Assembly (NCBI GenBank): GCA_041657885.1
Contig: JBBABB010000001.1
Span: 65,094-129,093, forward strand
From: Minisyncoccota bacterium
Lineage (GTDB): Bacteria; Patescibacteriota; Minisyncoccia; Phycocordibacterales; UBA9973
Length of the DNA: 64,000 nucleotides
Reading direction: 5' to 3'
The notes under the pieces are model-generated. The model saw only the letters and a list, made by a program, of their open reading frames with translations, was not told the DNA's origin and did no database searches. Each line of letters starts with the position of its first letter. Positions within the stretch are counted from its first letter, which is position 1. Made by a program: the position numbers and the translations under genes. Below, in pieces: positions 24,245 to 26,133 of the stretch.

Positions 24245-25830
24245 TTTAAGTAGAGTTTGATCCTAGCTCAGGATGAACGCTGGCGGCGTGGATAAGGCAT
24301 GCAAGTCGAACGGACTTCATTTTTCCAATGATGAGATTATATCAAGTCAAAGGTCGTTTGAAGTTAGTGGCGAACGAGGTAGTAATACATAGGAACTTCC
24401 CCCTAAGTCGCGAACAACTCACCGAAAGGTGAGCTAATACGCGATAGTCTCTCCGGAGTAAAGTGCAAATTTATTTGTTGCGCTTAGGGAAAGGCCTGTG
24501 AAGTATCAGCTAGTTGGCGGTGTAATGGACCACCAAGGCTATGACGCTTAGGGGAGCTGAGAGGCTGACCCTCACCGATGGGACTGAGACACGGCCCATA
24601 CACCTACGGGTGGCTGCAGTCGAGAATCTTCCGCAATGGACGAAAGTCTGACGGAGCGACGCCGCGTGATTGATGAAGCTCTTCGGAGTGTAAAAATCTT
24701 TTATGAGGGAAGAAGTTTATTGACGGTACCTCATGAATAAGGGGCTCCTAATCTCGTGCCAGCAGGAGCGGTAATACGAGAGCCCCGAGCGTTATCCGGA
24801 ATTATTGGGCGTAAAGGGTGCGTAGGTGGTAGTGTTAGTCGTTTGTTAAATCCTCGGGCTTAACCCGAGAATCGCGAACGAAACGGCACAACTAGAGAGT
24901 GTGAGGGGTATAGGGAACTCATGGTGTAGGGGTGAAATCCGTTGATATCATGGGGAACACCAAAAGCGAAGGCACTATACTAGCACATGTCTGACACTCA
25001 AGCACGAAAGCGTGGGTAGCGAATGGGATTAGATACCCCAGTAGTCCACGCCCTAAACGATGATCTCTAGCCTTTCGGAGTATCGACCCTCTGAGAGACG
25101 TAGCTAACGCGTTAAGAGATCCGCCTGGGAAGTACGGCCGCAAGGCTAAAACTCAAAGGAATAGACGGGGACTTGCACAAGTAGTGGATTATGCGGTTTA
25201 ATTCGATGATAAACGAAGAACCTTACCAAGGTTAGAAATCTACATGAAAGCTCTGAGAAACCAGAGCCCTCGCAAGACTAGTAGACAGGTGATGCATGGC
25301 CGTCGTCAGTTCGTGGTTTGAATTGTTCCCTTAAGTGGGGTAACGAACGCAACCCTCGTCGTGTGTTATAAGTGTCACACGAGACTGCCCCGAACTTTGC
25401 GCAGAAACTTTAGTAGTCGGACTACTCAAAAGTAATCCGACTACTTAGAAAAGTTTATGCTTAAAGTTCGGGGAGGAAGGGGAGGATGACGCCAGGTCAG
25501 CATGTCCCTCTGATACCTTGGGCTACACGCATAATACAATCGCAATTACAACGGGCAGCGACGGGGTAACCCTGAGCGAATCCTAATAAAAATTGCGCCA
25601 GTTCGGATTGGGGGCTGCAACTCGACCCCATGAAGTTGGAATTACTAGTAATCGCGGGTCAGATATACCGCGGTGAATACGTTCTCAAGTCTTGTACTCA
25701 CCGCCCGTCAATTCAAGGGAGCCGGGAGTGCTCGAAATCTCTCCATACGGAGGGCCTACAGTAAGCTCGGTGACAGGGAATAAGTCGTAACAAGGCACGG
25801 GTAGCGGAAGCTGTTCGTGGAATAATTCAA
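24245..25830 (+). rRNA. rrs: 16S ribosomal RNA (ends approximate, +/- 20 nt) with a ~60-nt expansion at 25,392-25,452. No 23S or 5S follows
   Basis: Universal blocks read directly: agagtttgatcctagctcag, gtgccagcagccgcggtaatac (variant gtgccagcaggagcggtaatac), cttgtactcaccgcccgtca, aagtcgtaacaagg. A terminator follows at 26,134-26,162, then rnpB. Confidence 0.9.
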
Positions 25831-26133
25831 TTTGAAACCGTTGTGCTTTGCACATGAACTCGACACAAATTACGAATGGTTACGAATGTACGAATTAAAT
25901 TCGTGTCATTCGCATAAATTCGTGTATTAGTATCGTGTTAGCGAAGCGTAACTTATTGAGTCGATATTATGTGCCTCAATTGAGCACATAATGGACATTG
26001 ATTTTAAGTCCTAAAAGAAATCTGACAACAAGGGAAAGACCTGATAGGACGGAACAATAGAAAAAATATTTTTCTTGATTGATTTGATTATGAAAAAATA
26101 CCTCATTAAAGTTTAAATAAAATTAAACAAAAA

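Follow-up and report, generated by a model that had tools for sequence, protein, structure and literature searches.

The ribosomal RNA (rRNA) genes of the candidate phyla radiation (CPR, Patescibacteria), and of Parcubacteria within it, are already known from published work to have lost the anti-Shine-Dalgarno (anti-SD) sequence, to go with scarce use of Shine-Dalgarno (SD) motifs, to be unlinked and to carry insertions. Specifically, about half of Parcubacteria have no anti-SD, a set that overlaps with the members lacking uL1 (Tsurumaki et al. 2022, RNA, PMC9297842), Candidatus (Ca.) Campbellbacteria and Ca. Wolfebacteria are among the SD-scarce organisms without CCUCC (PLoS One 2024, PMC10783764), and 128 other taxa without an anti-SD are also without SDs (Amin et al. 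2018, PMC6107228). Unlinked rRNA genes have been described in Patescibacteria (Brewer et al., bioRxiv 10.1101/705046), and insertions abound in the rRNA genes of CPR (PMC11270868). Here, we describe the 16S rRNA gene found in a 64-kb stretch of DNA (the window) and the likely mode of translation initiation of the genes around it. The window stems from the chromosome of a Paceibacteria/Parcubacteria bacterium; it encodes the products of ordinary chromosomal genes (ClpB, ParB, RelA/SpoT, TopA, DprA, SerS, DnaX, Obg, SecA and DnaE), and among named relatives its 16S rRNA is closest to that of the Ca. Taylorbacteria ZLKRG15 metagenome-assembled genome (~85% identity), with metagenome contigs reaching up to ~92%. 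Overall, the locus is very probably best explained as an intact, unlinked Paceibacteria 16S rRNA without an anti-SD, in a cell that initiates translation without SD pairing and uses leaderless starts for many of its transcription units.

The published anti-SD-less Parcubacteria 16S rRNAs (PMC9297842, PMC10783764) resemble this one in lineage, in a helix 45 followed by a CCUCC-less tail and in the lack of SD enrichment. Both studies report the absence of a motif; the promoter-to-ATG geometry, the conserved sequence AAUUCAAUUUGAAA that replaces the tail and the tail-trailer hairpin are not described there, and the word "leaderless" is absent from PMC9297842. In other taxa without an anti-SD (Lim et al. 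2012; PMC6107228), i.e., some Flavobacteriia, Mycoplasma, Carsonella and other reduced endosymbionts, CCUCC loss likewise goes with SD absence and no matching variant SD, but the phylum and the replacement tail are different, and the window adds a sharp leaderless-promoter signature. As for extra sequence within a 16S rRNA that lies apart from the 23S, the window is like the systems of Brewer et al. and PMC11270868, whereas the insertion seen here is a short helix-40 extension without an open reading frame (ORF), not group I/II intron-like and without a homing endonuclease as in the PMC11270868 type. The leaderless-rich Mycobacterium, Streptomyces, Deinococcus and archaea (Haloferax) share a −10 box ~6 to 7 nt before the AUG, the preference for AUG and the large number of units concerned, yet keep a canonical anti-SD and SDs on leadered mRNAs; here, the anti-SD is gone and the leaderless state is predicted from geometry only. 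The Bacteroidetes ribosome is said to sequester its anti-SD, with SD-independent initiation as the default, reportedly in work of Jha et al. from 2021. Bacteroidetes keep a CCUCC that is masked by proteins, while in the window organism the sequence itself has been lost, both being SD-independent by default.

The 16S rRNA was aligned with the Rfam covariance model RF00177 (gathering score 50), which identified a full-length bacterial 16S gene with the following 3′ features.

24245 to 25832 (+), full-length 16S rRNA gene (RF00177 model positions 1-1533, 1327.6 bits)
25796 to 25819 (+), intact helix 45, CACGGGUAGC-GGAA-GCUGUUCGUG, with a GGAA loop (covariance-model alignment)
25820 to 25832 (+), 13-nt 3′ tail GAAUAAUUCAAUU with AUUCA in the CCUCC (anti-SD) position (alignment; conserved in relatives)

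The alignment runs from the universal AAGUCGUAACAAGG through helix 45, in which 100% of cells are paired across 51 sequences and five pairs show compensatory changes, to the tail. Here, GGAAUAAUUCAAUU aligns at full posterior probability to the consensus GGAUcACCUCCUUu (also given as GGAUCACCUCCUUU), so that AUUCA replaces the anti-SD core CCUCC. No CCTCC occurs on the plus strand inside the 16S gene, and the first one downstream, at 26285, lies 453 nt past the 16S end, beyond both the processing stem and the terminator described below. The 3′ tail of this 16S rRNA has lost the anti-SD core, behind a recognizable helix 45; sequestration of the Bacteroidetes type, which needs a CCUCC kept in the tail, does not apply. 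An earlier note, made from the letters of this DNA, had pointed to a helix-45-like hairpin after the universal sequence, to a missing anti-SD tail and to the lack of CCTCC in the next 300 nt. Alignment to a reference, the check it had proposed, and the search for CCTCC bear out all three; the alignment places the 3′ end at 25832, and a longer, CCUCC-bearing 16S was not seen.

The same tail architecture recurs in relatives. Among 120 loci with a 16S gene from a scan of species-representative genomes, the anti-SD was absent behind the same helix 45 (CACGGGTAGCGGAAGCTGYTCGTG) in 53 genomes, most of which are labelled Paceibacteria, Paceibacterota or Parcubacteria (Taylor-, Nomura-, Zambryski- and Ryanbacteria), along with some Saccharibacteria. 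In four of the loci (L029, L049, L059 and L097) the tail GAATAATTCAATTTGAAA is identical to that of the window. A metagenome scan gave 120 further loci, many from groundwater, and here the anti-SD-less tail was found in 107 unique sequences, with conservation stopping sharply after ...TTTGAAA. Indeed, in relatives at 82 to 92% identity the tail is unchanged while the sequence directly after ...TTTGAAA is unrelated. Since the variant tail is common to related species, it is no sequencing error.

The gene is embedded in a transcription unit of its own, followed by rnpB.

24021 to 24048 (+), sigma-70-type promoter of the 16S unit, TTGACT-16-TATAAT (11/12 consensus matches)
24179 to 24207 (+), 5′ arm (leader) of a processing stem enclosing the 16S (29 nt, 90% complementary to 26044-26072)
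25952 to 26000 (+), conserved hairpin element in the trailer, TTATTGAGTCGATATT..CTCAATTGAG (common to L148, L124, L122, L125, L158 and L176)
26044 to 26072 (+), 3′ arm (trailer) of the processing stem (inverted repeat with 24179-24207)
26126 to 26163 (both strands), bidirectional intrinsic terminator closing the 16S unit (perfect 19-nt inverted repeat with an A-run on one side and a T-run on the other)
26396 to 26770 (+), rnpB with its own promoter TTGTCA-17-TATAAT, ending at 26424 (RNA 26431-26770, Rfam)

The leader-trailer stem is the usual processing stem around pre-16S rRNA. With its own promoter, this stem, a trailer of ~300 nt and a terminator, the 16S gene shows itself to be a functional, self-contained transcription unit. 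Rfam gave no large-subunit rRNA or 5S match in the 64 kb, and neither a 23S nor a 5S gene stood beside the 16S in the 18 relatives examined. The rRNA genes are therefore unlinked in the sense that the 16S is transcribed independently and the 1.5 kb beyond its 3′ end hold no 23S; the missing 23S/5S, the terminator (given as 26,134) and the downstream rnpB had all been read correctly in the earlier note. The gene order 16S-rnpB is common to L049 and to L124/L171/L126. The rnpB RNA, whose 5′ end at 26431 falls 6 nt past the −10 box of its promoter, provides a calibration of the −10-to-start distance. Two observations concern the trailer itself: its hairpin at 25952-26000 is kept in relatives although the surrounding trailer has diverged, and TACGAAT/ATTCGT repeats occupy 25855-25945. 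TTACGAA motifs also lie just 5′ of several TGTGnTATAAT promoters (58270-58285, 58810-58825), and these TACGAAT/TTACGAA repeats may be a candidate regulator binding site.

We then asked about SD motifs, scored as GGAG, GAGG or AGGA at −20 to −4 of the start, in the window and in flanking sequence of relatives. An SD 4-mer precedes 2 of 61 ORF starts in the window, compared with 5.6 ± 2.2 in random 17-mers and with 6 and 8 at control positions, and pairing energy to the canonical anti-SD is weaker before these starts than at control positions. Nor was there an SD peak in the window, in 206 genes of anti-SD-less genomes or in 426 genes of metagenome relatives, while Campylobacterota loci, run as a control through the same procedure, gave a clear one (0.28 per gene at −10 to −6). 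No SD motif is thus enriched 5′ of these ORFs, and among 178 starts outside the leaderless geometry described below no other motif or tail-complementary k-mer was enriched either, the regions being merely A/T-rich. Together with the absent anti-SD, this indicates that the ribosome most likely works without SD pairing. The earlier note had reached for the same idea, stating that most genes lack SD-like sequences and that the ribosome may not use SD pairing; the count of starts and the CCUCC-less tail back both statements, and the SD frequency, which it wanted computed genome-wide, showed no enrichment in the window or in the flanks of relatives.

One exception stands out, as the earlier note had also seen when it remarked on the strong SDs of what it called a RiPP-like cluster (RiPP, ribosomally synthesized and posttranslationally modified peptide).

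56360 to 57629 (+), 26-aa peptide (56378) and radical-SAM enzyme (56550), with strong SDs AAAGGAGG and AAGGAGG (SD match)

The peptide ends in ...GSCCICD and is followed directly by the radical-SAM enzyme. Two adjacent strong SDs are unlikely to arise by chance, which suggests a recent acquisition; judging from sequence, the cluster is possibly foreign and recently transferred horizontally. A separate observation concerns the "GGGAGG-ATG hairpin element" of the earlier note, GGGAGGATG. It is included in an intergenic element of ~30 nt, GCTCCGAAC(T/G)TGGGAGGATGTTC(G/A)AAT, present in four copies at ~40020 and 41217 (+) and at 54030 and 58232 (−). The element can fold as CUCC/GGAG or CGAAC/GUUCG hairpins and has no Rfam match.

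How, then, might translation start? A sharp spacing between promoter-like boxes and start codons emerged from the window, where a −10 box was accepted if TATAAT was matched at 5/6 positions or more, 5 to 8 nt before an ATG. The examples are as follows.

7039 to 7056 (−), TGGTATAAT + 6 nt + ATG, relA/spoT homologue (leaderless geometry, Pfam)
17111 to 17128 (−), TGTTATAAT + 6 nt + ATG, AI-2E transporter (Pfam profile position 3 at residue 11)
18324 to 18341 (−), TGATAGAAT + 6 nt + ATG, rmuC (geometry, Pfam)
19106 to 19123 (−), TGTTAAAAT + 6 nt + ATG, RNase T-like exonuclease (profile position 1 at residue 5)
19130 to 19147 (+), TGATATAAT + 6 nt + ATG, yqeY (profile position 2 at residue 4)
23564 to 23581 (+), TATAAT + 6 nt + ATG, 126-aa ORF (geometry)
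33978 to 33995 (−), TGnTATACT + 6 nt + ATG, dnaE with start at 33980 (geometry, Pfam)
34001 to 34018 (+), TGATATAAT + 6 nt + ATG, 573-aa ORF (geometry)
54677 to 54694 (+), TGATAGAAT + 6 nt + ATG, NUDIX hydrolase (geometry, Pfam)
57679 to 57697 (+), TGATATAAT + 7 nt + ATG, methyltransferase (geometry, Pfam)
58288 to 58307 (+), TGTGGTATAAT + 6 nt + ATG at 58305 (geometry)
58826 to 58845 (+), TGTGATATAAT + 6 nt + ATG at 58843, PEBP-family protein (geometry, Pfam)
60002 to 60023 (+), TGTGATATAAT + 8 nt + ATG at 60021 (geometry)
60560 to 60577 (+), TATAAT + 6 nt + ATG at 60575 (geometry)

For 8 of the 21 TGNTATAAT boxes, an ORF of 70 aa or more begins with an ATG placed exactly 6 nt downstream. By the −10 criterion, 19 of 62 ORFs qualify, compared with 2.1 expected from internal ATGs, and in 14 of those 19 the box carries a TG extension. 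The geometry fits 17 of 44 first genes of transcription units, as opposed to 2 of 13 operon-internal genes; the latter lie −29 to +31 nt from the preceding gene, some overlapping it as ATGA or TAATG, and have no SD. Pfam N-termini agree with the predicted ATGs, among others for YqeY, RNase T, the AI-2E transporter, PEBP, SecA and Obg (MFID...). In a survey of 737 kb of relatives' sequence, the TGNTANNNT-to-ATG spacing showed a peak, with 56 cases at 6 nt and 30 cases at 7 nt where the background is ~3, and it did so for ATG only, with GTG and TTG remaining flat, i.e., with the preference for AUG that is typical of leaderless starts. From such sequence patterns, ~40% of the transcription units look leaderless. 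Leaderless translation was also what the earlier note had taken its promoters to imply, and the 6- to 7-nt spacing agrees with it. The boxes that it listed at 731, 58,288, 58,826 and 60,001 are real, except that the first begins at 726 (731 being the start of the TATAAT hexamer); with the last at 60002, the ATGs follow the four boxes by 10, 6, 6 and 4/8 nt, respectively.

The proposed sequence of events would be the following. The 30S subunit would be unable to dock on mRNA through SD pairing. For the first genes of many units, transcription would begin with the A of the AUG, 7 nt downstream of a −10 box that is often extended, and a ribosome carrying fMet-tRNA would recognize this 5′-terminal AUG. 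Within operons, the downstream genes would begin at unstructured, A/U-rich junctions or at stop codons that overlap the start (ATGA, TAATG), features which point to reinitiation or standby binding.

Several observations weigh against this account. The exact 3′ end of the 16S rRNA is predicted from sequence, as is the leaderless state from promoter geometry, and gene starts were assigned with simple rules, not with a trained gene finder. The strong SDs at 56378 and 56550 would be left without a pairing partner in the 16S rRNA. In a small sample (141 genes) from CPR relatives with a retained CCUCC, an SD peak was likewise absent, which means that SDs may have fallen out of use before the anti-SD was lost, and not necessarily as a result of that loss. 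Finally, a second rRNA locus might, formally, lie in the genome outside the 64-kb window. On the CCUCC-keeping set itself (L002, L010, L019, L025, L028, L051 and others, from Magasanik-, Falkow-, Moran- and Uhrbacteria), we observed in addition a small 6-nt peak. With both this peak and the missing SD peak in these relatives, a causal link between leaderless geometry and anti-SD loss is not established.

Might the TATAAT-like motif 6 to 7 nt before the ATG belong to the mRNA rather than to the promoter? It could be A/U-rich and serve leadered mRNAs as a ribosome-binding site or enhancer in place of the SD, recognized for example by bS1 or the altered platform. SD-free lineages such as Bacteroidetes do use A-rich upstream signals, the upstream regions of the other genes here are merely A/T-rich, and the leaderless state is read from promoter geometry, not from mapped transcription starts. 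We nevertheless consider such an element improbable. The TG extension, present in 14 of the 19 window ORFs and in the form that gives the clade-wide peak, is typical of extended −10 promoters; the spacing equals the −10-to-start distance, as between the −10 box and the RNA 5′ end of rnpB; the peak is confined to ATG; and the motif is mostly absent before operon-internal genes (2/13, as opposed to 17/44 first genes).

An alternative in which the new tail acts as a noncanonical anti-SD, pairing with a matching noncanonical SD such as AAUUGAAUUAU, would account for the strong conservation of the tail and for AAATTGAATTAT upstream of dprA and serS. That motif, however, sits 30 to 40 nt upstream, at a promoter (−35-like) position, and the −20 to −4 regions pair with the organism's own tail no better than controls do (−0.72 versus −1.04 and −1.17 kcal/mol). 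The lack of an enriched tail-complementary k-mer before the 178 non-leaderless starts argues in the same direction, as does the lack of a matching variant SD in 128 anti-SD-less taxa (Amin et al., PMC6107228). An SD complementary to the tail, neither enriched nor SD-positioned, was therefore rejected as highly improbable. Even less credible is a degenerate 16S copy, a pseudogene or an assembly artifact, with a working operon including an anti-SD and a linked 23S-5S elsewhere. It is true that our view is limited to 64 kb of the genome; however, CPR genomes typically have one rRNA copy, the gene matches the model over its full length with all helices present, helix 45 and the 530-loop pseudoknot show compensatory changes, and promoter, processing stem and terminator are in place. 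As the same tail and unlinked layout also recur in dozens of independent genomes and contigs, we rejected this reading. As an aside on the divergent dprA/serS intergenic region, it holds two inverted copies of AAATTGAATTATGCAAYCTTGCTTAT, at 10329-10354 (−) and 10397-10422 (+), in promoter position; these may be a candidate shared operator, their complementarity to the 16S tail being coincidental.

Returning to the tail of the intact, anti-SD-less 16S rRNA, we noted a small hairpin across its 3′ end.

25826 to 25836 (+), mini-hairpin UUCA-AUU-UGAA straddling the canonical 16S 3′ end, in a conserved block ending at 25837 (compensatory variants, conservation drop)

In 24 of 52 distinct anti-SD-less tails, a Watson-Crick hairpin of 4 to 5 bp begins exactly at the seventh tail nucleotide (E. 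coli position 1536), with the first bases past the canonical end as its partner. Compensatory variants include UUCA/UGAA, CUCA/UGAG, GUCA/UGAC, UUCC/GGAA, UCCA/UGGA and UCCU/AGGA, and in an ungapped alignment all four pairs have changed on both sides. Stems of at least 4 bp form in 77% of anti-SD-less tails, compared with 41% of shuffles; an analogous CUCC...GGAG pairing is found in canonical-tail genomes (74% versus 24%). Furthermore, the unconstrained TTTGAAA columns hold 0.7 to 1.4 bits of information in the set of 107 unique metagenome sequences, and the value drops to ~0.15 bits right after them, which extends the conserved block 5 nt beyond the canonical end. Against the hairpin speak its pairing of only 62% of cells in a fixed-register alignment and its thermodynamic weakness: its 4 bp are mostly A-U and absent from the minimum free energy fold, which is why we relied on positional and compensatory evidence instead. 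Pairing of tail positions 1536-1539 with the first trailer bases, kept by compensatory changes, would probably serve maturation or protection of the 16S 3′ end. One could also imagine, although we give it little chance, that the block GAAUAAUUCAAUUUGAAA, including the 5 nt past the canonical end, is retained in mature 16S rRNA as a 3′-terminal mini-helix at the site of the SD/anti-SD duplex; such a built-in "pseudo-SD helix" would lock the platform in an initiation-competent conformation suited to a leaderless or SD-free translatome.

In the literature searched, we did not find "leaderless" paired with Parcubacteria, and with Patescibacteria/CPR there was only incidental co-occurrence. The compensatory mini-hairpin spanning the 16S 3′ end and the clade-wide leaderless promoter geometry were likewise not found there; we regard both, along with the restriction of this geometry to AUG, as additions of moderate interest.

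The 16S rRNA also varies elsewhere, most visibly at the tip of helix 40.

25388 to 25473 (+), extended helix 40 with a 74-nt insert at its tip (fold −49.6 kcal/mol, z = −8.4; hypervariable in relatives)

By covariance-model alignment, the tip measures 74 nt (~25395-25468) versus 3 in the model and forms a long coaxial hairpin. Thus, the insertion that the earlier note had placed at 25,392-25,452 in the 3′ domain is real, though 74 rather than 60 nt long and an extension of helix 40. A second insertion, of 38 nt, lies in variable region 1. In relatives at 82 to 92% identity, the helix-40 tip differs wholly in length and sequence while always forming a hairpin of its own, which suggests a lineage-typical, hypervariable expansion site. 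Rfam gave no intron-family match inside the 16S, and the 74-nt insert contains no ORF; we therefore rejected an intron in favor of a plain hairpin, with neither the group I/II-like structure nor the homing endonuclease of intron-type CPR rRNA insertions. By comparison, the relatives L216, L133, L146 and L152 carry insertions of ~1 kb near E. coli position 1400 (window equivalent 25699/25700), which are typical CPR rRNA insertion sequences and absent from the window 16S. A further observation concerns the 530-loop pseudoknot (24737-24778), which covaries from GGC/GCC to UCC/GGA; the universal 515F primer site is affected by this altered loop and becomes GTGCCAGCAGGAGCGGTAA.

Two other elements of the window deserve mention. 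A tRNA gene at 52351-52721 (−) has its anticodon loop interrupted by a group I intron of ~300 nt (RF00028, 63 bits). It was missed by ARAGORN at default settings and called tRNA-Thr(UGU) by ARAGORN with introns, while the U|...G splice rule makes it tRNA-Asn(GUU). This gene adjoins a large serine recombinase (50736-52364) of a region, 44000-52400, that looks like an integrated island: its GC content is 0.39 to 0.41, compared with ~0.33 to 0.35 in most of the window, and it encodes an OLD-family AAA/TOPRIM nuclease (45529-47379) with a 422-aa partner as well as several ORFs without a Pfam match.

The 16S rRNA described here adds a well-documented case to a clade lacking the mRNA-rRNA contact regarded as a hallmark of bacterial initiation. 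In practical terms, gene finders that rely on SDs will misplace starts in these genomes. Beyond the absence of a motif, the result supplies what published surveys did not show, namely, how such genomes may start translation.

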